Source: Methanobacteriota archaeon
Lineage (GTDB): Archaea > Thermoplasmatota > Poseidoniia > MGIII > CG-Epi1
Assembly: GCA_014240055.1 (NCBI GenBank)
Contig: JAAZXP010000002.1
Coordinates: 10,040 to 74,039 of the forward strand
Length of the DNA: 64,000 bases
Direction: 5' to 3'
Below the pieces are notes generated by a model. It saw only the letters and a list, made by a program, of their open reading frames with translations. It ran no database searches and was not told the origin of the DNA. The position numbers and the translations under genes were made by a program. Below, one piece after another: positions 14,565 to 59,435 of this stretch. Each line of letters begins with the position of its first letter. The stretch's first letter is position 1.

Positions 14565-14642
14565 TGGTAGCGGGGGATGGATTTGAACCATCGATCTCCG
14601 GGTTATGAGCCCGACGGGATTTCCTAGCTACCCCACCCCGCT
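14565..14642 (-). tRNA. initiator tRNA-Met (anticodon CAT), CCA encoded
   Basis: The reverse complement folds as a cloverleaf. Acceptor stem AGCGGGG/CCCCGCT has an A1:U72 pair. D-loop contains A14 and GG. Anticodon stem TCGGG/CCCGG carries three consecutive G:C pairs next to the loop CTCATAA. T-arm GATGG-TTCAAAT-CCATC, discriminator A, and a 3' CCA at 14565-14567. A1:U72 plus the triple G:C anticodon stem are archaeal/eukaryal initiator hallmarks. Confidence 0.85.
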
Positions 14643-14749: not shown

Positions 14750-15268
14750 GTGGATAATGGAACGGCCTTAGAAGAAATTAAAAAACAAATAGAAAGTTTA
14801 GAGAGTAATCAGATTATTCTAATAGTAGTGGTTGCTGTAATATTACTCTATCTTGTTCTAACAAAAACACAAAGAGGTAGAGACGTGAGAAAAAAATTTA
14901 GAATTCTACCTAAGCTAATTCCATTAGAAGATGAATATGAAGCGGAAATTGAAGAACCAGAAAATCTTGATGGTAGTAACAGGCAACTCAAAGGAGAAAT
15001 TATTGAAAATGAACATGATATTCTGAATAGACTATTGGGAAATAACGAACCAGAAAAATTAGATGGATTTAATGAAGAAGATGCCGTAATTTTTAAAGAA
15101 CAAGAAGAAACAATACCACTTCCTAATCAAAATTTTGAAGATATGAAAGATCATAATAACTCTGCAAGTGAAAACCAAGAATACTGTGCCTCATGCAATA
15201 AACCGGTGAAAACTGAATGGAAAGCCTGCCCTTTTTGTGGTGAATTTCTCGAGATTTATGAAGACTAA
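14750..15268 (+). CDS. small membrane-anchored protein with cytoplasmic C-terminal zinc ribbon
   Basis: GTG start. One TM helix (IILIVVVAVILLYLVL), an acidic linker, and a C-terminal CASCNKPVKTEWKACPFCG. Its 3' end overlaps the convergent gene 15265..17451 by 4 nt. Confidence 0.45.
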   Translation: MDNGTALEEIKKQIESLESNQIILIVVVAVILLYLVLTKTQRGRDVRKKFRILPKLIPLEDEYEAEIEEPENLDGSNRQLKGEIIENEHDILNRLLGNNEPEKLDGFNEEDAVIFKEQEETIPLPNQNFEDMKDHNNSASENQEYCASCNKPVKTEWKACPFCGEFLEIYED

Positions 15269-17451
15269 TTATTATTTCTTCTGCGTTGCAGAATAGTAAC
15301 TAATGTTAATAACAATAATGTGGGCATGTACCCTAACGCTGGTAAGGATGAGTCATTATTATCTCCGCCATTCCCACTTGTGGTTTGCTCACTTACTGTT
15401 AAACGAATATCAAGAGAATTATCAGATAATGAATAAATTGATTCAGAAACTGCTTGCTCAAAGTCTACTTTAATTTTTAAAAGTGTAAAACCCGAAGATG
15501 GGTTTGACCAAGTTAATATTACTGGTTCATTACCAAAGCCACTGATGCCTTGTTCCAACTTATATTCATCTACCACTTTTTGACCTGCATACAACTTAAT
15601 ACCAAAAGGTACTGTACTTTTACCACCATTATTGTAAACTGTTAATCTTATTTGTACCGGTTCTGTAGAACTTAAATCGTCTTCTGTTAGAAGAGAGAAT
15701 GGCTTACCATTGATAGAAACGTCTTCAATATTAACTGCTAAATCTGAAATTCTATCAAGTGGAATATCTATTATTATTTCTGAAGACAGAGTTGCAGAGC
15801 CATCGCCCGGGGAAATTGAATCTGCTGTTAAAAGAAGACCTATCGGATCACCTAAACTATTTTCGTAATTTAACGGCCTTAATACCAAATCTATTTTTTG
15901 TGTTTGAGACTTGTCTATAGTTACTGCCGAAATCTCAGTCCCATCAATCTCTATGCGTATAGACCAATCACTACGAGCAGTTGTAGCATCTAACCGATAT
16001 GTGTCCTTATCGCTACCAGTATTTCTCAAATTAATACTGAAATAATAATAACCATCAATATCCAAAGCTTCTGGATCTACATTTATTTTATCAGGAGGTG
16101 AAAGAAATACTACGCCGTATGTTCTAACTGTAGCATCTAACTTAATGCTCTCAGAAACTGCAGAATTACTTGTTGAAGTCACAATTATGTTTACTGACTC
16201 TTTACTTCCTCCAGGTGCTGAAACTGGAGCTTCAATCTTAACTTGAACGTAATTGTACAAGTCCATTCCAATATCAAGGCTTGATTGTGAAGTTAATGTT
16301 GCTTCCCAATTTGAGGGTAACGAATTATCATCTAATTCTATAGTAAATATGTCTCGTGTATTGCCTCTATTGTATACTAAGAATTCAAAGTCGACCTTAC
16401 CTCCCTTTGGTAACTGTCCAGAAGGACTATAATTCTCACTGAACTCTATTTCTAATCCATATTCATCAACAATCAGCTCATAGTCTATAGTGGCACTCCA
16501 CATATTTCCATAAGCGTCCTCAATTGAAAACTCAATTTCATAAGTTCCAGTTACTATGTCTTGATCTTCTTGATAATACCAAGTTCCTTGGATATATTTA
16601 GCATAAGTATGCTTATCTTTAACTAAAATTGAATTTTGAAATTTCCCTCCGTTGGAAACTCCCTTAATTTCAATGTTAGCACTCTCTGAATCTAAATTAT
16701 CGGCACCTAAAGCATTTGAGACGTTTACCTTGATAAACAAACTGTCTGCACTCATTTCTTCGACACGGTCATTACTAAAATAACCTAAGTAATCATTCGC
16801 AATTTCCACATGTCTAACATTCATCATAAATGAAGAATCACATGCTACAGTCCCTGAATCATTGCCACAACCTCTACTTGAACCTGCCTTGACCCAAGCT
16901 GTTCGATTGTCTGTATCTGGAGCCCATGTAACGCTTGTTTCAAGCTTAAACCCAATCGTCGTGTAAGCTGGAACTCCATCAGGGAAATCACTAGTGTCTA
17001 TTGAAGAACTTTCTAATTCTAAAGTATAATTTCTACTTAAAAAGGCACCAAATCCAGAGGTTTTTGTGACTTCATCAACCGAAATATTTGACATGCCCTC
17101 AGATGTTGAAATAAATAATGTAGTGCGAAACCTAATTTCTTGAACATTTGTTGATTCAACCCATATAATATAACTCATGGAATCGCCCAAGTTAATAGGC
17201 CCTCCAAGATTCATTTCCCATGAAACTAATGGATAAAATGAATTTTCTTGGCCTGGCTCATCATAAGCTTTCCAATACTTTGGTTTTTCAGATGTAGGCT
17301 CTTCTGTAGTTAGCTCATAGGTATCTCCAAAACCGGCCTTATCAAAATAAATCTCAATGTCAGCATATTCATTACTCTCAGCTTGTGAAGGTCCTGCCAT
17401 AATCAAAAAAGCAAGAACACAAAGCGATAGGGTTTGCCAGAAATGTTGCAT
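15265..17451 (-). CDS. large secreted cell-surface protein with C-terminal membrane anchor
   Basis: 728 aa with an N-terminal signal peptide (CVLAFLIMAGPSQA). Many N-x-S/T sequons and beta-rich repeats. C-terminus is ...SSLPALGYMPTLLLLTLVTILQRRRNNN (TM helix plus basic tail). Confidence 0.55.
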   Translation of the reverse strand: MQHFWQTLSLCVLAFLIMAGPSQAESNEYADIEIYFDKAGFGDTYELTTEEPTSEKPKYWKAYDEPGQENSFYPLVSWEMNLGGPINLGDSMSYIIWVESTNVQEIRFRTTLFISTSEGMSNISVDEVTKTSGFGAFLSRNYTLELESSSIDTSDFPDGVPAYTTIGFKLETSVTWAPDTDNRTAWVKAGSSRGCGNDSGTVACDSSFMMNVRHVEIANDYLGYFSNDRVEEMSADSLFIKVNVSNALGADNLDSESANIEIKGVSNGGKFQNSILVKDKHTYAKYIQGTWYYQEDQDIVTGTYEIEFSIEDAYGNMWSATIDYELIVDEYGLEIEFSENYSPSGQLPKGGKVDFEFLVYNRGNTRDIFTIELDDNSLPSNWEATLTSQSSLDIGMDLYNYVQVKIEAPVSAPGGSKESVNIIVTSTSNSAVSESIKLDATVRTYGVVFLSPPDKINVDPEALDIDGYYYFSINLRNTGSDKDTYRLDATTARSDWSIRIEIDGTEISAVTIDKSQTQKIDLVLRPLNYENSLGDPIGLLLTADSISPGDGSATLSSEIIIDIPLDRISDLAVNIEDVSINGKPFSLLTEDDLSSTEPVQIRLTVYNNGGKSTVPFGIKLYAGQKVVDEYKLEQGISGFGNEPVILTWSNPSSGFTLLKIKVDFEQAVSESIYSLSDNSLDIRLTVSEQTTSGNGGDNNDSSLPALGYMPTLLLLTLVTILQRRRNNN

Positions 17452-29285: not shown

Positions 29286-29975
29286 TTGAGAATTGTACTA
29301 GTTGAACCACAACATCCCGGTAACGTAGGCGCTGTAGCTCGCGCTATGGCTAATTTTGGATTGACCGATTTAGCAATGGTAAATGGATGTGAACTAGCTG
29401 ATGAAAGTTATGCAAGATCTAAATCAGGGAGGCCGGTTTTAGAAAATTCAAAACGTTACAAAACTATTGAAGAAGCTATAGCAAATTGTGACATCGCTAT
29501 TGGAACTAGTGGAATAACGCCTGAAGGAGATAAAAGATGGTTTAGAGCTCCTGAAAACGTTGAGAAAATTAATGATATTATCACTGAAAGAGAAAATCCA
29601 GCATTGTTGTTTGGGCGAGAAAATTACGGACTTTACAGAGAGGAATTAGCTCTTTGTGAAACGACCATAACTATTCCTACAAATCCGGAATATCCAGTAC
29701 TTAATCTTTCTCATGCAGTTTCAATAGTTCTTTACGAAATAAAAAGAAAAGAGAAAGTAAAAGGTCCGAAAAAACGAAAAAATGTTTCTAACGACGAATT
29801 TGAAAGATTAGTTGAGAGAATTATGGATTTATTGGAAAATAGTAGCTATCCCAAGAGAAGACTAGATCGTTCTAAAACAACCCTAAGAAGATTAATCTCT
29901 AGAGGAAATCCTGATGAAGGCGAATATGAAAACTTAATGGGAATATTCAAGGCAATAAGAGAGGGAAAAAGATGA
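29286..29975 (+). CDS. SpoU/TrmH-class RNA 2'-O-methyltransferase (TrmJ-like)
   Basis: RIVLVEPQHPGNVGAVARAMANFGL matches the TrmJ N-terminus. TTG start. Confidence 0.7.
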   Translation: MRIVLVEPQHPGNVGAVARAMANFGLTDLAMVNGCELADESYARSKSGRPVLENSKRYKTIEEAIANCDIAIGTSGITPEGDKRWFRAPENVEKINDIITERENPALLFGRENYGLYREELALCETTITIPTNPEYPVLNLSHAVSIVLYEIKRKEKVKGPKKRKNVSNDEFERLVERIMDLLENSSYPKRRLDRSKTTLRRLISRGNPDEGEYENLMGIFKAIREGKR

Positions 29976-30439
29976 AATATATTATGGTTACTGGCCCAAT
30001 GGGAGCTGGGAAGTCAACATTTATGAGAAGTTTACCTAAACCTCAAGAAAACTTTGTTGTACCTAGCAATGTTCCTGACATGATGCTAGATTATTCATGT
30101 AAATTAAAAAAAATGATGTTTTACGAAATCGATGCACCGACCGCTACTGGAATAGCTTGGATAGATTGGATTAAAGCTGCAAACACACAGCTTATTGTTG
30201 GAAATGGAATAGAAGGACCTGATGAATATTTTATTGAATTATGGAACTACTTAGTTCAAAATACTCCCGAGACTCAAAGAGTTATTATACTAAATCGCAC
30301 AGATAAGATTACAGACGAATGGAAAACTTATGCAAATGAAAAAATAATGTGTATTGGAATCGGGAATACTATTGATGAAGAAACAGCAATAGCTGCCGAA
30401 AATGATATTTCAGCCATTATAGATTATCTAGAGGAATAA
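29972..30439 (+). CDS. small P-loop GTPase-like protein
   Basis: G1 motif GPMGAGKST and G4-like NRTD. 155 aa. ATGA overlap with the preceding methyltransferase gene. Confidence 0.5.
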   Translation: MKYIMVTGPMGAGKSTFMRSLPKPQENFVVPSNVPDMMLDYSCKLKKMMFYEIDAPTATGIAWIDWIKAANTQLIVGNGIEGPDEYFIELWNYLVQNTPETQRVIILNRTDKITDEWKTYANEKIMCIGIGNTIDEETAIAAENDISAIIDYLEE

Positions 30440-30440
30440 A

Positions 30441-30866
30441 ATGAATAATGATAAAAAAATTGAAAGCTTGAGATTTCTTTTAGCTGCAGCAAGTCAAATC
30501 TACGGTGAAAAGAAATTACTTCAAATGTTGAATACACAAGGTGCTCCTCAACATGAACATATAGAATTGCTCGTAAATGACCCTGGACTAAGATTTACAC
30601 ATTTAACAATGGCGCTAAAGGAATCTGATGACTTTATTTCCCAATTAGAAAATCGATTAACTGAATTATGCAATATCGCAGATAGCTTAGAAATTGGTAA
30701 ACCTGAAAATATTAGAAAATGGTTGAGTGATGACTGTAGGCCCTGTATAGTAGAACACATTATTCAAGGATATGAAGATGTATATCATATTATGATTGAA
30801 TTGGATAATAGGCTAATGTGGCCTGGTTGGCCCCTTATTGGGAAATTACATGACCCAATAGAATAA
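30441..30866 (+). CDS. hypothetical protein co-transcribed with the GTPase
   Basis: 141 aa, starting 2 nt after the GTPase stop with GAGGA 6 nt upstream. No known motif. Confidence 0.3.
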   Translation: MNNDKKIESLRFLLAAASQIYGEKKLLQMLNTQGAPQHEHIELLVNDPGLRFTHLTMALKESDDFISQLENRLTELCNIADSLEIGKPENIRKWLSDDCRPCIVEHIIQGYEDVYHIMIELDNRLMWPGWPLIGKLHDPIE

Positions 30867-30914: not shown

Positions 30915-33617
30915 ATGAGTAAAGCACATGTTTATCGATTTGGACCAGGCATGACTGATGGTGATGCTGAGATGAAAAACCTATTGGGTGGAAAAGGGGC
31001 AAACCTTGCTGAAATGGCTATTTTAGAAATTCCAGTACCTCCGGGATGCACAATAACTACTGAAATTTGTACATACTATAATGAAAATAATAAAAGCTAT
31101 CCTAAAGAATTAGAAGAACAATTAAAGAATTCCATTAAAGATATTGAAAATAGCGTAGGAACTGTATTTGGAGATCCAGATAATCCTCTGTTACTATCTG
31201 TGCGATCTGGGGCTAGAGCTTCAATGCCAGGTATGATGGAAACTGTTCTTAATGTAGGGCTAAACGATTTTACAAGAGAAGGATTAATTTCTAAAAGTGG
31301 CGATCCAAGATTTGTATATGATGCTCAAAGAAGATTAATTCAAATGTATTCTGATGTTGTTATGGAAAAAGCCTCTGGAATTGAACCTGAAGAAGGCATG
31401 GGAATTAGAAACCAATTAGAACATGAATTGGAAAAAATGAAAGAACAAGCTGGCGTGACTGAAGATACTGAATTGTCTGCTATGAATTTGAAAGATTTGG
31501 TTGAAATCTATAAAGGAAAAGTTATCGAAGTCCTAAAAAAACCATTCCCAGAAGATCCTTGGAAACAATTATGGGGCGCTATTTCAGCTGTTTTCCATTC
31601 ATGGGATGGAAAAAGAGCAAAGGCTTACAGAAAAATTGAAAATATACCTGAAGAATGGGGAACTGCTGTTAATGTACAAGCAATGGTATTTGGAAATCTA
31701 GGAGACGACAGTGCTACAGGCGTCGCATTTACTAGAAATCCAGCAACTGGTGAGAATAATTTCTACGGAGAATGGCTAGCAAAAGCTCAGGGGGAAGATG
31801 TTGTAGCCGGGATAAGAACACCTAATCCGCTCAATGAAGTCTGTAGAACTGAACACAGTGGAGATTTATCTAGCTTAGAACAAGAATATCCACACTTGTA
31901 TAACGAATTAAACGAAATTAGAATCAATCTTGAAAAACATTACAATGACATGTTAGACATTGAATTTACTATTCAGTCAGGAAAATTATGGATGCTACAA
32001 TGCAGAATAGGCAAGAGAAATGGACCTGCTGCAATTCGTATGGCATCTGAAATGGTTAATGAAAAAATGATTGATGAAAGAACAGCAGTAACTAGAGTGT
32101 CGCCATCACAATTAGATGAATTATTACATCCAATCGTTGATCCTGATATGGAAAAAGTAACTCCATTGCTTGCAAAAGGACTGCCTGCAGGACCTGGAGG
32201 TGCTACCGGAAAAGCTGTTTTCACAGCTCAAGATGCTGTTGATTGGGCTGAAAAAGGAGAAACTGTTGTATTAGTTCGTGAAGAAACAAATCCAGAAGAT
32301 GTTGAAGGGATGCGAGCTTCTGTGGCTATACTAACCTCGAGAGGGGGAATGACATCGCATGCAGCTTTGGTTGCAAGAGGTTGGGGAATGTGCTGTATAG
32401 TTGGTGCTGGTGAAATGAAAGTTGATTCTATTAAGAAGGAATTTGTAGTAGAAGGAAAGACCATAAAAGAAGGCGATTTGATAACTTTAAATGGAACTGC
32501 TGGAAAAGTTTATGAAGGTGAATTACCACTAATTGAGACTGACATTACTAGTGATTATCTAACTCATTTCCTAAGTATGTGTGATGGAATAAAGAGAATG
32601 AAAGTTAGGACAAATGCTGAAACTCCATCAGATGCTAAACGAGCCCTAAGCTTTGGAGCTGAAGGTATTGGACTCTTTAGAATAGAACACATGTTCTATG
32701 GAGAAGGTTCTGAAAAACCCTTATTTCATCTTCAAGAAATGATTATGGCTAACAGTCCCGAAGAACGTAAAACTGCTTTAGATCTGTTATTTCCATATAT
32801 GAAAAATGACATTAAAGATACATTGAAAACAATGGAAGGCCTTCCAGTTACAATCAGATTAATGGATCCTCCATTACATGAATTTATCCCACATGATGTT
32901 AATAGACAAACTGAGCTTGCAGAATCACTTGGAATTGATTCTACTGAATTAGCTAGAAGATCAGATGCATTAAAAGAATCGAATCCAATGATGGGACACA
33001 GAGGTGTGAGATTAGGAATCACCCATCCTGAAATTACCGAGATGCAAGCACGAGCCATCCTTGAAGCTGCAGCTGAATTAAACATTGAAAATGTAAAAAC
33101 TTTCCCTGAAATAATGATTCCATTGACTGGTATGGAAACTGAATACAATCATCAAGAAAAAATTGTCCGAGAAGTAGCTGAAAATACAGAAGGATTAGAC
33201 AATTATATGGTTGGAACAATGATGGAAATCCCAAGAGCAAGTTTTGTTGCAGACCGAATTGCAGAAACTGCTGAATTCTTTTCATTTGGTACTAACGATT
33301 TGACACAAATGGCATTTGGATTTAGCCGTGATGATACTGGAGGATTTATGCCAGCATATCTAGAATTAGGATTATTACCTGAAGATCCTTTTGCAAGTCT
33401 TGACGAAGGTGTTTGTGAATTAGTAAAAATGGGAATTGAAAAAGGAAGAAAAACAAAACCTAATCTAAAGATTGGAATTTGTGGTGAGCATGGTGGTGAA
33501 CCAAAATCAGTCCACTTCTGTCATAATGTAGGTATGGACTATGTTTCATGCTCTCCTTTTAGAGTACCTATCGCCAGACTTTCTGCTGCACAAGCAGTAT
33601 TGAACAATGAAAAATAA
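30915..33617 (+). CDS. ppdK: pyruvate, phosphate dikinase
   Basis: 900 aa. Phosphohistidine segment GGMTSHAALVARGWG, an N-terminal ATP-grasp domain and a C-terminal PEP-utilising TIM barrel. Confidence 0.9.
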   Translation: MSKAHVYRFGPGMTDGDAEMKNLLGGKGANLAEMAILEIPVPPGCTITTEICTYYNENNKSYPKELEEQLKNSIKDIENSVGTVFGDPDNPLLLSVRSGARASMPGMMETVLNVGLNDFTREGLISKSGDPRFVYDAQRRLIQMYSDVVMEKASGIEPEEGMGIRNQLEHELEKMKEQAGVTEDTELSAMNLKDLVEIYKGKVIEVLKKPFPEDPWKQLWGAISAVFHSWDGKRAKAYRKIENIPEEWGTAVNVQAMVFGNLGDDSATGVAFTRNPATGENNFYGEWLAKAQGEDVVAGIRTPNPLNEVCRTEHSGDLSSLEQEYPHLYNELNEIRINLEKHYNDMLDIEFTIQSGKLWMLQCRIGKRNGPAAIRMASEMVNEKMIDERTAVTRVSPSQLDELLHPIVDPDMEKVTPLLAKGLPAGPGGATGKAVFTAQDAVDWAEKGETVVLVREETNPEDVEGMRASVAILTSRGGMTSHAALVARGWGMCCIVGAGEMKVDSIKKEFVVEGKTIKEGDLITLNGTAGKVYEGELPLIETDITSDYLTHFLSMCDGIKRMKVRTNAETPSDAKRALSFGAEGIGLFRIEHMFYGEGSEKPLFHLQEMIMANSPEERKTALDLLFPYMKNDIKDTLKTMEGLPVTIRLMDPPLHEFIPHDVNRQTELAESLGIDSTELARRSDALKESNPMMGHRGVRLGITHPEITEMQARAILEAAAELNIENVKTFPEIMIPLTGMETEYNHQEKIVREVAENTEGLDNYMVGTMMEIPRASFVADRIAETAEFFSFGTNDLTQMAFGFSRDDTGGFMPAYLELGLLPEDPFASLDEGVCELVKMGIEKGRKTKPNLKIGICGEHGGEPKSVHFCHNVGMDYVSCSPFRVPIARLSAAQAVLNNEK

Positions 33618-34311
33618 CCAAAATAGCGCTCAAAGATTACTTGAAATTAGTGTGTTTTTAGGAATAGGGACCTTAATCATTACATATATTGTTTCAACAA
33701 CTAGTGGAAGAGTTGCACCATTTATTCCAATTATCTCCGAAATGCCATTCAATGACCCTGAAGGATCAATATTTGGCATTGGACTTGGAATCAGCATGTT
33801 CAGTTTTCTAATTTTAGCTCAGGTGTTTCACAAAATCTTCAAACCGTTATCAAAAGAAATTGATAGTAATTATGAAAACATGAATGATTTAATTAGAATA
33901 ATAGCAACACTGGGAGCTATTTGCGGAATTATAACTGTTAATTTTAATTGGGATACTTATCCTATTTTACATGGAATTACTGCATTTATATTATTTACTT
34001 CATTTTTAATTTGGAATACTTTTGCCTATCTTGTCTTAGAAAAATCTGGAAAGGGAAATAGCCTTCGGAAATATGCAGTTTATGCAGGATGGATGTTCTA
34101 TGTGTTTATGGCTATCTTTAGTGTACTTGATAACCAAGAATTACAAAAAGAAGAAGGTGATTTTTTCTATAGGATGAATAATCCTCCAACTGTAGATACT
34201 GAAAGATCAATGTATCTAAATATCACGGCATTTTGTGAATGGGCCATGGTATTTTCGTTCTATACTAGTGCTCTTACTCATAAAAAGGAACTGGAAGGAA
34301 TTTCTATCTAA
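33607..34311 (+). CDS. polytopic membrane protein, unknown function
   Basis: 234 aa with about 6 TM helices. Lacks the Asp/GxGD motifs of A24 prepilin peptidases. Confidence 0.35.
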   Translation: MKNNQNSAQRLLEISVFLGIGTLIITYIVSTTSGRVAPFIPIISEMPFNDPEGSIFGIGLGISMFSFLILAQVFHKIFKPLSKEIDSNYENMNDLIRIIATLGAICGIITVNFNWDTYPILHGITAFILFTSFLIWNTFAYLVLEKSGKGNSLRKYAVYAGWMFYVFMAIFSVLDNQELQKEEGDFFYRMNNPPTVDTERSMYLNITAFCEWAMVFSFYTSALTHKKELEGISI

Positions 34312-34357
34312 TTTTTGAAAGTTAAAAGTTTATAGTGGCTCTGCATTCGCAGTATAC

Positions 34358-34933
34358 TTGGCCACTGTCGAACAGGAATTATTATACGCCATTCGTGCTA
34401 TTGAAGTTCTTCTGGAATCTGGCGTTGGTATTGCTGAAGCAATGAAGCATATTGCCGATGAAGATTATGGTGAGCTGAGCACAATTTTTAAACAAATATT
34501 TTCAGACACAGATGGAGGTCGGAACTTTAGTGATGCAATACGTACTCAAATGAGAAGTACTGATTCATCCGGTCTAAGAAAAGTTCTATCTACTTTGATT
34601 ATGTCAATTGAAGAAGATACGAATGTTATTGACCGCTTAAGATCTATTGCAGACAAAGAAGCAAGAGAACGACGTGTAAGTTTAGATACATTCATTGAAG
34701 GATTGACTGCGACATCTGAACAGTTTCTAATTGTATCGATTCTAATTCCAATTATTGTAGTAATTGGGGCAGTTGTAAACGGAATAATAGAATCTGCAAA
34801 AGCTGCAGGCGGTGGATTTCTTGGTAATACACCTGAAATGCCAACTGTATGTGTACCAATTTTATTTGGTATAGCTAGTATAATTATTGTTGGAATGGTA
34901 TTTCAAACTAAAGCAAGGGAGCCTGGAGTATGA
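34358..34933 (+). CDS. T2SSF-domain (TadB/FlaJ half-like) membrane protein
   Basis: Cytoplasmic helical N-domain followed by 2 TM helices. TTG start. Confidence 0.55.
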   Translation: MATVEQELLYAIRAIEVLLESGVGIAEAMKHIADEDYGELSTIFKQIFSDTDGGRNFSDAIRTQMRSTDSSGLRKVLSTLIMSIEEDTNVIDRLRSIADKEARERRVSLDTFIEGLTATSEQFLIVSILIPIIVVIGAVVNGIIESAKAAGGGFLGNTPEMPTVCVPILFGIASIIIVGMVFQTKAREPGV

Positions 34934-35694
34934 GCATACTAGACGATTTGTTCAGTGGAGATGGAATGGGCGATATCTATGGCCTCATATGGATTGGATT
35001 AGGAATATGGGCTGCTGTTGGACTTTTCTTTTACATTCCTGCCAAAAGAAAATTAGACCGAATTAATGAATTGGAAATGGTATGGCCTGATGTTCTAGCT
35101 GATTTAGCTGAAGAATTAAGAGCTGGAATGGGTGTAGAATCTGCATTAGATGCAATTTCACGTTCGAGGAGCGATCGTATGGGTGTTATGCTTAAAGCTG
35201 CAGTTGAAAGAATGAGAGACGATGGTTTTGGAATGGCAATGAAAGACTTTGCTAAGAAAACTGAATCTCCTATGATTTCAAGAATTGTTAGTATCCTGAA
35301 TGTCGCATTAGGTTCATCTGGAAGCTTTGCTACTACTCTCGAAAATATATCTGAAGAATTCTGGGAAATATATATGCTACGTAAAGAAAGAATTACCAAA
35401 ACACAAAGTACTGCAAACTTTATTCTATGGGGAGGATCAATTATCTGTCCTGTCCTCTTAGGAATAATTGTCGCAGTATTTGGAAGTGGAAAAGCTGGAT
35501 CTATTACATTAGATGTAAAATTAGATGTATTGAACCAAGCTATGTTTTTCTACATGATGGTTTTAGGCGCTGGAGGTGTGTGGATGCAATCTGTAATTTT
35601 ACAAACTACTAAAACGGCAATATGGAGAATGCCAATGTATATGTTCTTAGCAACAACTGTACTTCTATTATCTCTAAAAATATCTATAGTATAA
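34930..35694 (+). CDS. T2SSF-domain (TadC/FlaJ half-like) membrane protein
   Basis: TM helix, then a cytoplasmic helical T2SSF-like domain (LADLAEELRAGMGVESALDAI...), then 3 TM helices. Confidence 0.6.
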   Translation: MSILDDLFSGDGMGDIYGLIWIGLGIWAAVGLFFYIPAKRKLDRINELEMVWPDVLADLAEELRAGMGVESALDAISRSRSDRMGVMLKAAVERMRDDGFGMAMKDFAKKTESPMISRIVSILNVALGSSGSFATTLENISEEFWEIYMLRKERITKTQSTANFILWGGSIICPVLLGIIVAVFGSGKAGSITLDVKLDVLNQAMFFYMMVLGAGGVWMQSVILQTTKTAIWRMPMYMFLATTVLLLSLKISIV

Positions 35695-35696
35695 AC

Positions 35697-36929
35697 ATGG
35701 AACAAGGACGAATTATTGAAAAATATGATACCGCAAATATAGTCGAGAGACCTGGTTCTCAACGGCCTCTTTATCAAGTTACAAAAGCAACCAGTTCTCC
35801 TCAATATGGAGCATTGAAACCTCTTTTGGACGACGATAATTTAGAAGAAATAATGTACAATCATCCTGAAAGGGCAATTATGGTGGCTCATAGAAAGCAC
35901 GGAATGTGCGTGACTAACGTTAAAATGACTGGAGATGAAGCTACAGCCATAATCAAAAGAGTGGCTAAATATGTTGGAAGAAATATAGGTCCTGGAAATT
36001 TATTATTAGATGGAAGATTACCTGATGGAAGTCGTGTAAATGCAACAATCCCGCCTGTTTCTCCAAATGGTCCAACAATGACCATTAGAAAACAAATGAG
36101 CGACCCGTTAACTGTAGTGGACTTGATGAAATTTGGAACAATGTCTCCTCGTTTAGCTTCACTATTATGGATGTTTACGGATGGAATGGGAGCAGCACCC
36201 TCTAATATCCTAGTAGCTGGAGGAACTGGTTCTGGAAAAACTACAACTCTAAATGTTTTAGGATTATTTATCCCTGCTAAAGACAGATTAATTACAATTG
36301 AAGATGTTACTGAAGTTCAATTAAAACATGAACACCATGTACAACTTGAAACCTTCAACTCTACAAAACCTGAAGAGCCTGAAGTTAATATGGACTCATT
36401 ATTGAAGAATACCTTGCGAATGAGGCCTGATCGCATTATTGTTGGTGAAGTTAGAGGGCCTGAAGCTAAAACTCTGTTTACTGCAATGAATACTGGTCAC
36501 GAAGGTTGTTTTGGAACAGTACATGCTAATACTGCTCAAGAAACAGTTTCAAGATTAATTAATCCACCTATGGAAGTTCCACCAATAATGATGAATGCCT
36601 TACATTTGATCATTATGCAAAGTCGTATTGCTGTAGGAGGAAAACAAATACGAACTATAACTGAAGTTTCTGAATTAGCTGGACTAGAGGGCTCAAAGCC
36701 TAGATTGAATACGCTGTTCAAATGGAATGGTCAAACTAATAAATTAGAAGAAACTGGAGTTCCTAGTAAATTAAGAGAACGGATTTCTAAAGCTGCAGGA
36801 ATTGCACCAAGGCAATTTGATGAGATGGCACAAAATAGACAGAAAATTCTTGAATCTTTAGTTCAAAGAGGCTACAACGATATTAAGCAAGTCAGTACTG
36901 TCGTTCAAAATTATTACGCTAAGATGTAA
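35697..36929 (+). CDS. type IV filament/secretion ATPase (CpaF/TadA/VirB11 family)
   Basis: Walker A GGTGSGKTTTLN, Asp box, Walker B and His box (RPDRIIVGEVRG...TGHEGCFGTVHANT). Start re-assigned to the ATG 2 nt after the upstream stop; the tracked start at 35622 would overlap by 73 nt. Confidence 0.8.
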   Translation: MEQGRIIEKYDTANIVERPGSQRPLYQVTKATSSPQYGALKPLLDDDNLEEIMYNHPERAIMVAHRKHGMCVTNVKMTGDEATAIIKRVAKYVGRNIGPGNLLLDGRLPDGSRVNATIPPVSPNGPTMTIRKQMSDPLTVVDLMKFGTMSPRLASLLWMFTDGMGAAPSNILVAGGTGSGKTTTLNVLGLFIPAKDRLITIEDVTEVQLKHEHHVQLETFNSTKPEEPEVNMDSLLKNTLRMRPDRIIVGEVRGPEAKTLFTAMNTGHEGCFGTVHANTAQETVSRLINPPMEVPPIMMNALHLIIMQSRIAVGGKQIRTITEVSELAGLEGSKPRLNTLFKWNGQTNKLEETGVPSKLRERISKAAGIAPRQFDEMAQNRQKILESLVQRGYNDIKQVSTVVQNYYAKM

Positions 36930-36933
36930 GCAT

Positions 36934-37911
36934 ATGGTAAGCACTTATTCTGAAGCTGGAGTAGATATCGATGCAAGTGAAAGAGCTACTGAAGCTCTCA
37001 TTGCACAAATTAAAAGCGTTAACAGAAAGGGTGACGGTGAAGCCATAAAATTAGATAATGGATTTGCAGGACTAGTCAAACTTGGAGATGGTGCATTGGC
37101 AATGTGTACAGATGGTGTTGGTAGCAAATTATTACTAGCTGAAGAAATGGATTCGATACACACAGTTGGAATAGATTGTGTTGCAATGAATACAAATGAT
37201 CTAATTTGTGTTGGAGCTGAACCACTAAGTTTTGTAGATTATATCGCACTTGATAAGCCAGATGAAAAATTGATGGCTAAAATTGGAATGGGGCTAGCTG
37301 AAGGCTGTAAACAGTCTAATTGTACCCTTTCAGGAGGAGAAACTGCAATTCTACCTGAATTAGTTCACGGTTTTGACATTGCAGGAACTTCTGTTGGTTA
37401 TGTAAAACAAGACAAAATTATTGATGGAACTAAAATTTCTGAAGGTGATATCTTAATTGGATTAAAATCAAGTGGACCTCATTCAAATGGGTATACTTTG
37501 ATTCGTAAATTATTTGACGGGGATAAAGACATTGGAAAACAGCTTGTTGAACCTACTAGAATTTATGTCAAAGAAGTAATGAACTTGATTAAACAAGTAG
37601 AAGTCCATGGAATTGCTCACATTACAGGAGGTGGATTAGACAATATTAATCGAATAAATGACAATTTTCAATATTTAATCGATAATCCTTTACCTGTACC
37701 TTCTGTATTTGATTGGTTACAAGAAAAAGGAAGTATTGAAGACAAGGAAATGTATCGAACATTCAATATGGGAATGGGGATGATAATTATTGTTAACAAA
37801 AATGATGCCGAGAAATCAGTATCAATTCTTGGAGAGCATGCGCAAATTATTGGTTCTGTTAGAAATGGAAAAGGTGTTGAACATAGCCAAGTAACAACTG
37901 ATCTCGCTTAG
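36934..37911 (+). CDS. purM: phosphoribosylformylglycinamidine cyclo-ligase (AIR synthetase)
   Basis: YSEAGVDIDA N-terminal motif and PurM-like N/C domains. 325 aa. Confidence 0.8.
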   Translation: MVSTYSEAGVDIDASERATEALIAQIKSVNRKGDGEAIKLDNGFAGLVKLGDGALAMCTDGVGSKLLLAEEMDSIHTVGIDCVAMNTNDLICVGAEPLSFVDYIALDKPDEKLMAKIGMGLAEGCKQSNCTLSGGETAILPELVHGFDIAGTSVGYVKQDKIIDGTKISEGDILIGLKSSGPHSNGYTLIRKLFDGDKDIGKQLVEPTRIYVKEVMNLIKQVEVHGIAHITGGGLDNINRINDNFQYLIDNPLPVPSVFDWLQEKGSIEDKEMYRTFNMGMGMIIIVNKNDAEKSVSILGEHAQIIGSVRNGKGVEHSQVTTDLA

Positions 37912-41610: not shown

Positions 41611-42435
41611 TTATTTTTTTGAAGCTGCTTCAACTACATTAGACATTAACATAACTACAGTCATAGGCCCTACACCACCAGGGACTGGCGTCAAAGCTCC
41701 AGCAACCTCTCTAACATCAAAAGAAGTGTCACCAACAAGACCTTGATCTGTACGATTTACTCCTACGTCTATTATGACTGCTCCAGACTTAACCATCTCT
41801 TTGGTAACTGTATTAGGGTAACCAACAGCTACAATCAAAATATCCGCTTCCTTACAAAATTTTTGGATATTAGGTGTTCGACTATGGCAAACCGTAACTG
41901 TTGCATCCATACCTTTCTGAAGTAGTAGTAGAGAAATCGGTTTTCCAACAATAGTACTACGGCCAACGACCACTACATTCTTTCCACTAGGATTATTGCC
42001 TGTACGAGATAATAACTCGATGATTCCTGCAGGAGTACATGGTTTCATTCCTGGATTTTCTTGTACTATTTTACCTAAATTAGTAGGATGAAAACCATCA
42101 ACATCATTTTCAGGTTCTATCAAATCTAATACACTTTCAAATCCAGCTGGCAAAGGTAGCTGAACAATTATACCGTCTTCAGTTCTATTCAAATCCTTAA
42201 CTAAATTTTCCAACTCTTTTTTAGATATATCTGACGAAAGATGATGGTGGGTTAGATTAATTCCAATACGCTCAGCTGCATTAGATTTAGCACGAATATA
42301 AGAGGTAGAAGCAGGATCTTCACCGACCTGAACTACTGATAATTTAGGCGGTATTTTCATTTGTGCTACTCTAACTTGTAACTCATCCTCTATCTCTTTT
42401 GCAATTTTCTTTCCATCAATTAACTTAGCAGTCAA
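41611..42435 (-). CDS. folD: bifunctional methylenetetrahydrofolate dehydrogenase/methenyl-THF cyclohydrolase
   Basis: YxxK and GRSxIVGxP signatures (VVVGRSTIVGKPIS). Confidence 0.85.
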   Translation of the reverse strand: MTAKLIDGKKIAKEIEDELQVRVAQMKIPPKLSVVQVGEDPASTSYIRAKSNAAERIGINLTHHHLSSDISKKELENLVKDLNRTEDGIIVQLPLPAGFESVLDLIEPENDVDGFHPTNLGKIVQENPGMKPCTPAGIIELLSRTGNNPSGKNVVVVGRSTIVGKPISLLLLQKGMDATVTVCHSRTPNIQKFCKEADILIVAVGYPNTVTKEMVKSGAVIIDVGVNRTDQGLVGDTSFDVREVAGALTPVPGGVGPMTVVMLMSNVVEAASKK

Positions 42436-42869
42436 TGTAAATCCTCTAACTGATAAAGTTCAACTTCAATACGAGGCCCATCGCCTTGTGCTGCAATTCT
42501 CTTTCGGACTATTAATTCTGATATTTGACCATCATCATGATACAAGACTCCACTAAGGCCATCCTTGATAGATTTAGCAATATTATCTGCATCTGGTCTC
42601 TTTGAATGGTACTCTTCTTTTCTTGGTTCTTTTACCCGCCATTTGCTCTTAGGACATGGAAAATATGCAAATATTTCAATTCCCAAAGGCCCCTCAAAAA
42701 GACCTTCAAGTCCAGCTTCAGTTCGAGCTTTCTGACCAATATAGGCAATATCTGCCTTGTAGACCTTACTGGGTTTTGGATCTGTAGCAACAACAAAATT
42801 ACCCTTTCGATAAAATCTAGGTCGGCCTTGAGCAACGGGCTTTCCTGGCAATGTAAATTTAATACGCAC
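42432..42869 (-). CDS. RusA-family Holliday junction resolvase-like endonuclease
   Basis: 145-aa protein aligns with E. coli RusA across FTLPGKP (ITLPWPP), the catalytic region RPDADNIAKSIKDGLSGVLYHDDGQI ([27 protein letters not shown]) and the C-terminal GPRIEVEL. ATGA overlap with folD. Confidence 0.6.
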   Translation of the reverse strand: MRIKFTLPGKPVAQGRPRFYRKGNFVVATDPKPSKVYKADIAYIGQKARTEAGLEGLFEGPLGIEIFAYFPCPKSKWRVKEPRKEEYHSKRPDADNIAKSIKDGLSGVLYHDDGQISELIVRKRIAAQGDGPRIEVELYQLEDLH

Positions 42870-53335: not shown

Positions 53336-53650
53336 ATGTCAGACGATAATGATAATAATGATGAATTCACCGATTTCAAAGGTAGAGCCGATTCTCCTGA
53401 AGATGGTTTCACAACTTCTGAAATGATTACTGGATTCGGAATGCTCCTTATTTTTGTAGGATTCATATTTGGTTTAATCAGACTTTTAGGCCTAAAAAAC
53501 GGAGAGATTCCTGCTGATTATGACAACCACCTTGATCAATTGTACCTAAGTTATCTTATAATGTTTGTAGGAATATTGATAACCAGTCTATTAGGATTCG
53601 GTGGAATGTTCAAAAGAACTATGTCTTCTTTCCTCGGTTCTAACGATTAA
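53336..53650 (+). CDS. small 2-TM membrane protein with acidic N-terminus
   Basis: 104-aa ORF. Its 3' end converges on the pilin-like genes. Confidence 0.3.
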   Translation: MSDDNDNNDEFTDFKGRADSPEDGFTTSEMITGFGMLLIFVGFIFGLIRLLGLKNGEIPADYDNHLDQLYLSYLIMFVGILITSLLGFGGMFKRTMSSFLGSND

Positions 53651-54036
53651 AAAGTTAATAATTTATCGAAACTTACGGACATTGTATTGTCATTGAGCTC
53701 ATAAGTATAAACGAAGGTGTGAGTTCCATTGCTTTCTGTTGCTGATGTTAAAGTATAGAGTAAAGAGTATCCGCGTGAGGCAAGGATTGACTCAAATTCT
53801 TCTGTGGCAGTATCAAAAGACATGGATAATTCTACACCATCTGCAGCATTCAAAACTTCATACTCTAAGGCTAATGAAAAACTATTCTCTAATGAAGTAA
53901 TTATTGGAGTTATATCGTGTCTTTCTCCTTGATGATTACCCAAATTTACTGAATGTGTGATTGTACTAGTAACTGCAATTAGAGTAATTGACATTAAAAG
54001 TCCAGAAACTAGAAGTAATTGTGCTTGATCTCTCAT
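53647..54036 (-). CDS. pilin-like secreted protein (putative class III signal peptide)
   Basis: N-terminus MRDQA|QLLLVSGLLMSITLIAV: short charged leader, small residue, then a ~20-aa hydrophobic helix. Confidence 0.35.
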   Translation of the reverse strand: MRDQAQLLLVSGLLMSITLIAVTSTITHSVNLGNHQGERHDITPIITSLENSFSLALEYEVLNAADGVELSMSFDTATEEFESILASRGYSLLYTLTSATESNGTHTFVYTYELNDNTMSVSFDKLLTF

Positions 54037-54488
54037 TAATCCTCCCTATATCCATACCAAAGCTGCAAATTTAATTCCCAGAGTTCGTCGTCGGCCCAAA
54101 CGACTCTGAAAGTTTGAGTAACTGGTCCGGTGTGGACCGTTCTATCAACAAGAGTCTCTGTTTGACCTTCATGCGTCCCTTCCAACCTATATGACAAGGA
54201 AGAAGAAAGACCTGAATCCAAATATTGCTTTATTGCCGTATTATTGTCTGTAGCTAACCACCAGGATAGTGTAGAATTATGATGTGTTGCAGCAATCGTT
54301 GAGTCTGTTGGAACCCATTCATCTAGTATCTCCAGAATTTCTAATCCTGTAAAATAAAGATCATTTTCCTCAAAATTATTAGCATCACTTGTGGGAAGAA
54401 CACTAACTGCAACATTGATTGTGGAAGTGAATAAAGTAGCTACTAACAAAACTTCCAAAACATGCATTTGACCTTTAGTATTTTTCAT
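54036..54488 (-). CDS. pilin-like secreted protein (putative class III signal peptide)
   Basis: N-terminus MKNTKG|QMHVLEVLLVATLF: KG followed by a hydrophobic helix with Glu near +5/+6. Confidence 0.4.
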   Translation of the reverse strand: MKNTKGQMHVLEVLLVATLFTSTINVAVSVLPTSDANNFEENDLYFTGLEILEILDEWVPTDSTIAATHHNSTLSWWLATDNNTAIKQYLDSGLSSSLSYRLEGTHEGQTETLVDRTVHTGPVTQTFRVVWADDELWELNLQLWYGYRED

Positions 54489-54504
54489 AATTATTAAACT
54501 CCAA

Positions 54505-55740
54505 TTAAATCTGTGGAGTGTTTACTGAGGTTGCAATACCTATTATTTCGAAAATAAACCAACCCAAGAAGAGAAGGAAAGATGCTCGACTAAATGCAGA
54601 ATATAGCTTACCTGTAGACATGAAGCCTGCTGCAAGTCCGTTACCTATTCCTTGAACCATAAGACTGTAAAGGAACATACTTGAAATCCAAACTTCATTC
54701 ATCTCCCTAATTGTTAGATTACCTATAGACATACTACCGCCGCCTGTGGCTGCTGAAGAATCTACAATTGCAGGAATAAAAGTACTAGCAAGAACTAAAA
54801 TAATACCTAAGTAAACAAAGAAAGAAGCGTAAATAACAGTCACATAACTGCCTACTTCTTGTCTTCTTTCATTCTCTAAAGCCTTTATTTCTCTAGCATC
54901 AAAAGAGGCTGCCAAAAGAATATCCGAAATTCGACCTCCGGCCCTATTTGCTTCATCAACCATTCTTACAGCTCTTGTTACAATTGGAGAGGTTACTCTT
55001 TCAGTAAACATTTCTAAAACTTCACCGAAAGAAACTCCCCACGAAATTTGTGAAGCCATTTTGTTTACCTCATCATTAAGATTACCATATTCTCCTTTAG
55101 CTAAAGTTTGGATAGCTACAGTCATACTAAGTCCTCCTTTCCAGTATTCAGCAAGATCTCTTAAAAAATCGGGAAACTTTTCCTCAACACGTGCTCTAAT
55201 TGCATCTTGCCTTTTTCCATACCATCCATAAGGATACATCAAGGCAATTAAACCAAAAACAATGTAATCTATAGCTGAAATTTCAGGATAACTACGAAGC
55301 CATATATCTGCAGTCATCTCTTCATCAATGCCATTTACAAAAGGATCTTTATCTTTAGTTTCATTATTTGTAATTGCAAAAGGTGACCCTAAACCAGTAA
55401 TTAATTCATATCTTTCTCCATTCTGTGGTTCAGCATATGTATTTCCTAAAGTAAAAGTAAATCGACCATCATTCAAATTCCAAGGATTATCAAATTGTTT
55501 ATCATTATCTCTATCTTCCATTGGGGTGAGAGCATCAGTTCTTATGTCTTCATTGGCAATTGCAAAAAATAAGAGTGCTAATACTATTGAAAAAGCTGCA
55601 ACTAGGGCTGGGCCCCAATCTGCATCTTTATTTTTGACACTTAACCAACGATTGACTTTCCAATACTCCATCCAACGTCTTTTGACACCAGTACGGCGAT
55701 CTGCGTAGACTTTATTCTGAAGGTTCCCTTTTATTGACAT
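54505..55740 (-). CDS. T2SSF-domain membrane protein (FlaJ/TadB-like half)
   Basis: TM helices plus a cytoplasmic helical domain (WGVSFGEVLEMFTERVTSPIVTRAVRMVDEANRAGGRISDIL). Confidence 0.6.
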   Translation of the reverse strand: MSIKGNLQNKVYADRRTGVKRRWMEYWKVNRWLSVKNKDADWGPALVAAFSIVLALLFFAIANEDIRTDALTPMEDRDNDKQFDNPWNLNDGRFTFTLGNTYAEPQNGERYELITGLGSPFAITNNETKDKDPFVNGIDEEMTADIWLRSYPEISAIDYIVFGLIALMYPYGWYGKRQDAIRARVEEKFPDFLRDLAEYWKGGLSMTVAIQTLAKGEYGNLNDEVNKMASQISWGVSFGEVLEMFTERVTSPIVTRAVRMVDEANRAGGRISDILLAASFDAREIKALENERRQEVGSYVTVIYASFFVYLGIILVLASTFIPAIVDSSAATGGGSMSIGNLTIREMNEVWISSMFLYSLMVQGIGNGLAAGFMSTGKLYSAFSRASFLLFLGWFIFEIIGIATSVNTPQI

Positions 55741-56711
55741 TAGTCAGTTGAAACCTCCTGACTTAGTGAATAAAATAAACCTGAAAATACTATTTGGATA
55801 ACTGGAAATCCTCCAAAAACTAGAAGGTACATGTGTATCTGTTCAAGCTGCATTCCAGCTCCAGAAACCCAGAATGTAATAACTGCAATAATCATTGCGA
55901 AAATAGGCAGTGCGACAGCTACAACCACATAAGCTTCGGAAAATAAGGCCATTTGCTGTAAAACATCTTTAACATGGCTTCTATTTTGTTGACCATAATA
56001 TTCTGCTCTGTTTAAGAAATAAAGCTTTAGATTTCCTCCTGCTGTTACAGTCCCAATAATTCCCTGAACAAATTCAGCGAATCTTTCAGAGGGTGTTCTG
56101 TCTACAGCTTCCTTTAATGTTGTTACTAAATCCCGACCCATAAACTCCATACTATGATAGATCCAAGCCGCCTCATGCGCAATTTCCCCATATATATCTT
56201 TATTTCGAGCAAGAGATTTGAAAGTCATAGAAGGCGTCGCATTAGCTGCTGCCATTGCTGATACATAACTAGCTGCGAAAGGAATTTGTTTGTCCATATC
56301 TGAAGCTCTACTACTCTCCAACAAAGCTGGAGTTAACCACTGAACCAATGCCACTAAACCAGGTAATGCCAGCAACAATACTGCAGCTATAACTATTTCA
56401 ACAAAGAGGGAAATTGAATAAGTTGGTATTATCGTTTCTCCAGTTTGGCTATTGATAGTAGGTGCTGCATTCGGATCTTCCATAGACTCTATTTGAGGAA
56501 TTACTACGCCAAGAAGGAGCAATGTAACGCCCAGACCAACTAAAAAAGTTAAAACTACTTGCATTACTGTAGTAGCCACATAATCTTCTGCTAAAAGTGG
56601 AATACGGGCTTTAACTAATTGATTTTTGAAAGATAATGAATCTTTTGTTAGCATGCGGCCTAACCAACCGAATAAAACTCTGCTGAATGTTTCAAAACCC
56701 GTCAGAGCCAT
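55740..56711 (-). CDS. T2SSF-domain membrane protein (FlaJ/TadC-like half)
   Basis: TM helices plus cytoplasmic FKSLARNKDIYGEIAHEAAWIYHSMEFMGRDLVTTLKEAV. Confidence 0.55.
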   Translation of the reverse strand: MALTGFETFSRVLFGWLGRMLTKDSLSFKNQLVKARIPLLAEDYVATTVMQVVLTFLVGLGVTLLLLGVVIPQIESMEDPNAAPTINSQTGETIIPTYSISLFVEIVIAAVLLLALPGLVALVQWLTPALLESSRASDMDKQIPFAASYVSAMAAANATPSMTFKSLARNKDIYGEIAHEAAWIYHSMEFMGRDLVTTLKEAVDRTPSERFAEFVQGIIGTVTAGGNLKLYFLNRAEYYGQQNRSHVKDVLQQMALFSEAYVVVAVALPIFAMIIAVITFWVSGAGMQLEQIHMYLLVFGGFPVIQIVFSGLFYSLSQEVSTD

Positions 56712-58954: not shown

Positions 58955-58958
58955 TTTA

Positions 58959-59435
58959 TCATCCAGTGGTTAACTTGACAACCTTTAGATTATCATCATA
59001 GTATATGACTATATAAGAAGACGTCGATATCAATGGTGAACCGCTAGCAGTCTCTATTGCAGTAGCTGGAAATAGAGGGAATGTGACCTCGAATTCCCCA
59101 CCTCTAGGCTGCATTGTAGTAACCTTGAGACCCTCGGCGGTGCCTGCCAACTTGTACTTTATTCCATGATTTATTGATTCGATACCTGTATTCAATTTGA
59201 TAACTGGTGAAGAATCAGGATATTCTCTTACAGTAGTTAATAAATCTTCAACTGACAATTGAAAATAAAGTGCCAACTGTTCAGCCTCTTCCTGTGCAGT
59301 ATTTGCCATGTTTCCATTGAGCATTGTAGTGGAAGTAAGCATTATTGATGATAAAATTAAAATCGAAACGGCGATTGTGTAAACATAACCAATTAATTCT
59401 GATGCTGCTGAATCATCGTAAGCTAAATTTGACAT
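58959..59435 (-). CDS. pilin-like protein (putative class III signal peptide)
   Basis: N-terminus MSNLAYDDSAA|SELIGYVYTIAVSILIL. Confidence 0.35.
   Translation of the reverse strand: MSNLAYDDSAASELIGYVYTIAVSILILSSIMLTSTTMLNGNMANTAQEEAEQLALYFQLSVEDLLTTVREYPDSSPVIKLNTGIESINHGIKYKLAGTAEGLKVTTMQPRGGEFEVTFPLFPATAIETASGSPLISTSSYIVIYYDDNLKVVKLTTG

Follow-up and report, generated by a model that had tools for sequence, protein, structure and literature searches.

A compact Tad/Epd-like ATPase and split-platform module without adjacent pilins in Marine Group III and other Thermoplasmatota archaea

In Methanococcus maripaludis the ATPase MMP0040 (EpdL) and the platform proteins MMP0038 and MMP0039 (EpdJ and EpdK) are encoded in a small cluster apart from the pilins and the peptidase EppA, and all of these are essential for piliation (PMC4187195; PMC4371748). 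Pilin-less operons of an ATPase and TadC-type platform genes that act on pilins in trans have been described and are common (PMC4858521), and PilB3C3 of Haloferax volcanii assembles PilA pilins encoded elsewhere (PMC4858521; PMC4371748). The ATPases of the M. maripaludis Epd system fall into a clade 1 that comprises methanococci, methanobacteria and thermococci (Makarova et al., PMC4858521), and Epd-like systems have been united with bacterial Tad systems, both having two single-T2SSF platform genes and short pilins (Denise et al., PMC6668835), and TadB and TadC have been interpreted as fission products of one gene (PMC6668835). Here we analyse a three-gene unit (P1, P2 and an ATPase; positions 34358–36929, plus strand) in a 64,000-nucleotide (nt) stretch of contig JAAZXP010000002.1 (assembly GCA_014240055.1), hereafter the window, from a Marine Group III (MGIII) archaeon (Poseidoniia, Thermoplasmatota), which we consider is probably a functional Tad/Epd-type type IV pilus motor whose pilins and prepilin peptidase are encoded in trans.

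According to the list of open reading frames (ORFs) the three genes are tightly packed, and Pfam analysis assigned one T2SSF domain (PF00482, cut-off 25.2 bits) to each of the two platform proteins:

34358..34933, plus strand, P1, 191-amino-acid (aa) platform half with a TTG start (Pfam T2SSF, E=1e-14, 55 bits, residues 12-136)
34930..35694, plus strand, P2, 254-aa platform half (Pfam T2SSF, E=7.4e-12, 45.8 bits, residues 57-179)
35697..36929, plus strand, 410-aa secretion-superfamily ATPase of the CpaF/TadA/Epd-like group (Pfam T2SSE, PF00437, E=5.7e-43)

The start of P2 overlaps the end of P1 by 4 nt and the ATG of the ATPase lies 2 nt past the P2 stop codon (TAA). An alternative in-frame ATG at 35622 (35622–35696, plus strand) would give a 435-aa ATPase overlapping P2 by 73 nt; this start is used in some database entries (P0002), and close homologues are mostly 410–414 aa in length.

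Hydropathy analysis of P1 shows a cytoplasmic T2SSF helical bundle followed by two C-terminal transmembrane (TM) helices (122–140 and 164–182), and that of P2 a single N-terminal TM helix, the T2SSF domain and two to three C-terminal TM helices. An AlphaFold2 model of P1 (mean predicted local distance difference test score 72, and ~84 for the cytoplasmic domain) best matched the cytoplasmic domains of OutF, EpsF, PilC and TcpE (GspF type), with a probability of 1.0 and TM-scores, normalised to the target, of 0.60–0.67. Comparison with NCBIfam models aligned P2 to residues 281–454 of 484 in UpsF and 224–383 of 465 in FlaJ, which are the C-terminal halves of both. The P1 profile scored 82–99 bits against the first platform genes of Epd-clade archaea, where the P2 profile scored 40–61, and the P2 profile scored 104–117 bits against the second platform genes of two such loci (L015 and L020), where the P1 profile scored 53–67. 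These scores make P1 orthologous, one to one, to the first (N-half type) and P2 to the second (C-half type) platform gene of Epd-like loci. The homologues of P1 have a consistent length of 188–198 aa. P1 aligns only with the C-terminal ~180 aa of its orthologues, which in Epd-like loci carry an extra N-terminal ~120–150 residues and a TM hairpin that are missing in P1.

The ATPase comprises an N-terminal domain, a C-terminal domain and an archaeal-type C-terminal region of ~65 residues, without the extra N-terminal domain of its relatives; it aligns to larger Epd-clade proteins (480–630 aa) from its own residue ~37 onwards, and these carry 95–230 extra N-terminal residues. P1, P2 and the ATPase are truncated and represent a streamlined form of the Epd-like proteins. 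The Walker A motif (GGTGSGKTT, 175–183), the Asp box (E202, D203), the Walker B motif (R243–R253) and the His box (M264–H276) are present in the ATPase, and the residues of all four are invariant in an alignment of 11 homologues of 51–71% identity. An initial annotation of this DNA had read both small proteins as T2SSF domains and the 410-aa protein, starting 2 nt after the upstream stop, as an ATPase with CpaF/TadA/VirB11 motifs, and our data agree on each point: both platform scores lie above the Pfam cut-off, the P1 model concurs and the motifs are intact.

Among named relatives the ATPase is closest to that of a Marine Group III euryarchaeote (89% identity), with many Poseidoniia/Thermoplasmatota sequences next. 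A species scan, for which one genome per species was taken and which was keyed on two exact motifs, under-samples Poseidoniales, so that no prevalence can be drawn from it. Among the matches listed, the best ATPase genomes were those of Poseidoniia (52–55% identity), then Hydrothermarchaeota (50%), Thermococcus (52%) and Methanobacterium (51%), with bacterial CpaF (~40%) ranking after those archaea. Against structures in the PDB the ATPase scored 232 bits with Archaeoglobus fulgidus GspE (AfGspE), 219 with CpaF, 148 with FlaI and 95 with VirB11. The ATPase fell short of every NCBIfam equivalog cut-off, with scores and cut-offs of 253/550 for FlaI (NF058587), 210/373 for the TadA type, 181/305 for TrbB and 175/250 for VirB11, and FlaI is the top-scoring model because the archaeal C-terminal region is common to both. 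The paired FlaI/TadA model scores of the ATPase (253/210) are like those of Methanobacterium, Thermococcus and L020, compared with 406/141 for the ATPase of a second system in the window (locus 2, 53647–60483, minus strand) and 219/339 for Caulobacter CpaF. Models, structures and the tree described below together give a CpaF/Epd-like ATPase that is neither FlaI, PilB3/AfGspE-like nor VirB11/TrbB. An archaellum was considered and rejected on the FlaI model score (253/550), the PDB score with FlaI (148 bits), a platform that is split and small, and the lack of any archaellin or FlaF/G/H nearby.

Phylogenetic analysis, by neighbour-joining only (349 columns, 300 bootstrap replicates), split the locus-2 ATPase, AfGspE and FlaI from all other sequences with 100% bootstrap support, which places the two ATPases of the window, 35% identical to each other, in distinct clades. 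The Poseidoniia ATPases are monophyletic (100%) and so are the bacterial CpaF proteins (100%), and the archaeal genes are therefore not nested within the bacteria. The ATPase is of archaeal origin, with no recent bacterial import. Since the nearest taxa outside the Poseidoniia are those of clade 1 and the Epd-like group, the module belongs to the Tad/Epd-like group.

We examined 17 Thermoplasmatota loci with 8–10-kb flanks, namely three MGIII-like (L001–L003), eleven from Marine Group II (MGII; L004–L014) and three non-marine (L087–L089). The order P1-P2-ATPase was found in all 17, with lengths of 180–198 aa for P1, 220–261 aa for P2 and 411–462 aa for the ATPase. The neighbouring genes are housekeeping genes that vary by lineage (ppdK/Frag1/purM; an RPA-like trio plus a SAP-domain protein; exosome/PIN genes). 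Five loci of Epd-clade archaea (L015, L017, L019, L020 and L022) and every bacterial locus examined have the order ATPase-platform-platform, with platform proteins of 300–390 aa. The Thermoplasmatota unit is accordingly a reduced, cyclically permuted version, from ATPase-P1-P2 to P1-P2-ATPase. In a metagenome-assembled genome (MAG) labelled Thaumarchaeota (L024, 8729–11140) the same compact permuted order occurs (P1 181 aa, P2 308 aa, ATPase 397 aa, 42% identity); either the compact architecture extends beyond Thermoplasmatota or the MAG carries a wrong label. The ATPase-bearing ORF of the Hydrothermarchaeota locus L015 (26–3592) is 1188 aa long with the homologous part starting at residue ~776, which reflects either fusion to a large N-terminal part or, the contig being incomplete, faulty ORF calling.

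No pilin or prepilin peptidase was found within 17 kb of the module. Two six-frame scans of the 64-kb window for class III signal peptides returned pilin-like ORFs only in locus 2 (53647–60483), and the polytopic membrane proteins checked there included no evident candidate for an A24-type peptidase. Locus 2 encodes class-III-signal proteins, and since the genome makes such proteins it must encode a prepilin peptidase. In L015 and L020, Flp/Epd-type pilins of 59–69 aa directly follow the platform genes, bear an EppA-type signature (KGQ|xxxE, with Gln at +1 and an acidic residue at +5) and have homologues whose annotation reads Flp pilin or class III signal peptide, which ties the clade to pilus assembly. 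No Flp/Epd-type pilin adjoins the module in any Thermoplasmatota locus examined.

If the module is a functional pilus motor, P1 and P2 would derive by gene fission from a PilC/FlaJ-like protein, each representing one half of it, and would jointly form one platform, presumably as a heterodimer, with a hexamer of the 410-aa ATPase docking on their cytoplasmic T2SSF bundles. ATP hydrolysis would then power the transfer of signal-peptidase-processed pilins from the membrane to a growing filament at the surface. Pilins and prepilin peptidase would come from other sites in the genome, as for M. maripaludis EpdJ/K/L and H. volcanii PilB3C3. Such a filament would probably serve adhesion to particles or cells. 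The unit is probably ancestral and vertically inherited in Thermoplasmatota, in a streamlined form with a permuted operon.

Several observations weigh against a functional motor supplied with pilins in trans. P1 and the ATPase are without the N-terminal parts of their piliating relatives, so some interactions may differ. No TadZ/FlaH/MinD-like second ATPase adjoins the module. A Flp/Epd-type motif scan of the 64-kb window gave zero matches, with no pilin linked to the module, and the best 120 matches to a profile of the relatives' pilins, which are short and divergent proteins, included none named Poseidoniia and only Hydrothermarchaeales-type sequences. In the tree, the order among the Poseidoniia, the Methanobacterium/Thermococcus/Hydrothermarchaeota group and bacterial CpaF has 21–27% support for alternatives, and the tree is without a genuine M. 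maripaludis EpdL, so that clade-1 membership is assigned by taxa and not by a reference protein. The central proposal of the initial annotation, a second, minimal Tad-like ATPase and split-platform module without pilins or peptidase of its own, is upheld by our analysis. The reversed gene order that it described, platform halves first and ATPase last, recurs in 17/17 Thermoplasmatota loci, and its statement that neither a pilin gene nor a peptidase lies nearby is extended here to 17 kb. Its flanks (ppdK and a polytopic membrane protein upstream, purM downstream) are as given, the 6-TM protein being of the Frag1 family, and its two systems in a 26-kb span prove to have ATPases of distinct clades. 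Both T2SSF scores exceed the cut-off, no conjugation context was found and the housekeeping setting is kept in relatives.

An alternative, which we regard as doubtful, is that the module is an auxiliary motor for the locus-2 filament, acting as an alternative assembly, retraction or disassembly motor. Locus 2, an AfGspE/PilB3-type type IV pilus locus, is self-contained, having its own ATPase and split platform, and encodes:

59413-60483, minus strand, Pilin_N/DUF7289 protein, 356 aa
58959-59435, minus strand, class-III-like protein, 158 aa
56702-58954, minus strand, locus-2 ATPase, 750 aa, carrying a PilB3_C domain and long, charged extensions at both termini
55740-56711, minus strand, FlaJ half
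54505-55740, minus strand, FlaJ half
54036-54488, minus strand, small class-III-like protein
53647-54036, minus strand, small class-III-like protein

Four class-III-like proteins are thus encoded in locus 2, and against PDB structures its ATPase scored 420 bits with AfGspE, 130 with CpaF and 277 with FlaI. No archaellin or FlaH was found in locus 2, which identifies it as a pilus locus and not an archaellum. Profile comparison shows that its platform halves follow the same N-half/C-half scheme as P1 and P2, which fits the gene-fission model of PMC6668835. In favour of an auxiliary motor, locus 2 has the only pilin-like genes of the window. CpaF-type motors are reportedly bidirectional, from structural work on CpaF (PDB 8RKD/9E24). 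To our knowledge, archaea lack PilT. It has also been argued that ATPase/TadC modules can share pilin sets (Makarova et al., PMC4858521). Set against this, locus 2 owns an ATPase and a split platform, and the two ATPases are of different clades at 35% identity. The clade relatives use short Flp/Epd pilins, unlike the locus-2 proteins of 129–356 aa, and the linkage is not conserved, there being no second ATPase within 8–10 kb of the module in MGII loci L004–L014.

A pilin-independent or non-filament role, such as bindosome-like display or export of class-III-signal substrate-binding proteins, secretion or DNA uptake, seems improbable to us. It would account for the lack of an adjacent pilin in 17/17 Thermoplasmatota loci, the housekeeping setting with possible co-transcription with purM (4-nt gap) and the missing N-terminal parts of P1 and the ATPase, and secretion, sugar uptake and DNA uptake are known functions elsewhere in the type IV filament superfamily (PMC6668835). 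However, all characterised superfamily members use pilin-like subunits, the nearest relatives have pilins, non-adjacency is normal in archaea (PMC4858521), and the BasE model, as a measure of a bindosome-like role, scored 131 against a cut-off of 1000. We would also give little credence to the compact P1-P2-ATPase unit being a constitutively expressed reduced motor without the canonical adjacent partners, perhaps even without classical pilins (e.g., for surface-protein display or export), and/or the archaeal lineage closest to the bacterial Tad donor. It is very improbable that the module is what remains, decaying, truncated and without function, of an ancestral Epd-like system: the relatives have longer versions of all three proteins and no partner genes lie nearby, but the ORFs are intact, the lengths are the same in MGIII, MGII and other Thermoplasmatota at 51–57% ATPase identity and the motifs are invariant, and conserved lengths with invariant motifs indicate purifying selection, not decay. 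A conjugative or integrated-element VirB11/TrbB remnant can be rejected within the reach of the tools used, since the TrbB (181/305) and VirB11 (175/250) models, although significant, are sub-threshold, as expected superfamily-wide, the PDB score with VirB11 is 95 bits against 219–232 for CpaF and AfGspE, there is no VirB4, VirD4, integrase or nearby tRNA, GC content is that of the flanks and the chromosomal context, with its housekeeping synteny, is conserved in relatives.

The setting of the module is otherwise that of an archaeal chromosome, the window also encoding TFB, Pelota and NAC, with a GC content at the locus that is uniform with its flanks and the sole tRNA of the window at 14565. 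The immediate flanks are as follows:

30915-33617, ppdK, upstream flank (Pfam)
33607-34311, plus strand, Frag1-family 6-TM protein, 234 aa (PF10277, E=4e-22, 79 bits, cut-off 30)
34329..34334, plus strand, TATA-like box TTTATA, read from the sequence, in the 46 nt that separate P1 from the Frag1-family gene
36934-37911, purM, downstream flank (Pfam)

The gene for purM begins 4 nt downstream of the ATPase, and an aconitase gene is a further member of the flanks. The 3' end of the TTTATA box lies 23 nt upstream of the TTG start of P1, and the box could act as the promoter of a P1-P2-ATPase(-purM) transcript without a leader. The Frag1-family gene (33607–34311, plus strand) shares 11 nt with the 3' end of ppdK, and the ppdK-Frag1 pair is also found in L001–L003; the Frag1/DRAM/Sfk1 family is largely eukaryotic. 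Upstream of ppdK (29972–30866, plus strand) lie a gene for a P-loop protein of 155 aa (GPMGAGKST; NRTD as a possible G4 motif) and, 1 nt later, one for a 141-aa protein without a family match, and the pair could be a small GTPase with its partner. The pair is kept upstream of ppdK in L001–L003; ppdK lies between the P-loop gene itself (29972–30439) and the module, and in MGII the two are unlinked.

In MGII the module is preceded by three same-strand genes of ~556–626, 310–317 and 114–131 aa (L004 3667–6674; L009 5433–8659), the largest of which has OB-fold and zinc-finger features (weak Pfam match to Ssb-like_OB, E=0.005), which suggests that the trio are RPA-like single-stranded-DNA-binding proteins. 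As candidate pilus components these genes (556, 310 and 114 aa) were rejected, as they look like an RPA-type OB-fold/zinc-finger trio and not like pilins. A stand-alone Pilin_N pilin of 163–172 aa (9.5e-9) is encoded 5–6 kb downstream of the module in seven MGII loci of the MGIIa type, two of them labelled Poseidoniaceae:

L007 16022-16516, MGII Pilin_N pilin
L008 17045-17551, MGII Pilin_N pilin
L009 17214-17711, MGII Pilin_N pilin
L011 9842-10354, MGII Pilin_N pilin
L012 17080-17592, MGII Pilin_N pilin
L013 16454-16945, MGII Pilin_N pilin
L014 16426-16944, MGII Pilin_N pilin

Its N-terminus reads D-E/Q-AVSPVIATVLLLAITV, and the gene is placed beyond those for a polyprenyl synthase and a geranylgeranyl reductase. 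A pilin of this type is absent from the window and from L004–L006. It may be a substrate of the module or a matter of plain synteny, and we have not used it as evidence.

Elsewhere in the window, two genes (4425–8111, plus strand, 1228 aa; 15265–17451, minus strand, 728 aa) encode very large secreted or surface proteins, each with a Sec-type signal peptide, repeats rich in Asn and Thr and a TM anchor at the C-terminus; both are candidate adhesins or S-layer-like proteins. A RusA-family Holliday-junction resolvase gene (42432–42869, minus strand; 4.8e-27) shares 4 nt with the start of folD, with no other phage genes seen nearby; RusA is usually prophage-associated in bacteria.

MGII and MGIII are the ocean's most abundant planktonic Euryarchaeota. 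These archaea are uncultured, and what they carry on their surface is of importance for attachment to particles and for the turnover of carbon. Surveys of their genomes discuss only a 'flagella-like' operon among surface structures (PMC6461757; PMC6864105), and we found no specific description of the P1-P2-ATPase module in the literature on MGII/MGIII. The type of system and the layout with the motor in one place and the pilins in another are already known, including for M. maripaludis MMP0038–0040 (PMC4858521; PMC4187195); modestly new are the membership of Poseidoniia/Thermoplasmatota in the Tad/Epd-like group and the compact permuted architecture seen in 17/17 loci. The range of the Epd-like clade, previously class I methanogens and Thermococci, is thereby extended to MGII/MGIII and other Thermoplasmatota. 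With 445 platform residues and a 410-aa ATPase the module is a natural 'minimal' motor that could help structural work; conceptually it is in line with modular archaeal type IV pili whose pilins act in trans, and it raises the question of which pilins this motor assembles.

Compared with known systems, the archaellum motor FlaI/FlaJ (ArlI/ArlJ) is of the same superfamily as the module, whose platform is split and much smaller. PilB3-PilC3 of H. volcanii and OE2215R of Halobacterium (clade 2 of Makarova et al.) resemble the module in that their operons consist of ATPase and platform only, but their ATPases belong to another clade, and the PilB3/AfGspE-like ATPase of the window is that of locus 2. 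Bacterial Tad systems (CpaF/TadA, TadB and TadC) share with the module the ATPase group and the two single-domain platform proteins. They differ from it in a uniform ATPase-TadB-TadC order, in a CpaF that makes up a separate clade (100%) and whose alignment leaves out the archaeal-type C-terminal ~65 residues, and in the secretin, TadZ, Flp and TadV, none of which is present at the module. The examined loci of the clade-1 type have the order ATPase-P1-P2 with ATPases of 480–630 aa and platform proteins of 300–390 aa, and L015 and L020 have short pilins adjacent, whereas neither EppA nor an Epd-type pilin nor a FlaH/MinD-like ATPase turned up at the module. M. maripaludis EpdJ/EpdK/EpdL and the MGIII module both consist of one CpaF-like ATPase with two single-T2SSF platform genes, encoded away from pilins and peptidase.

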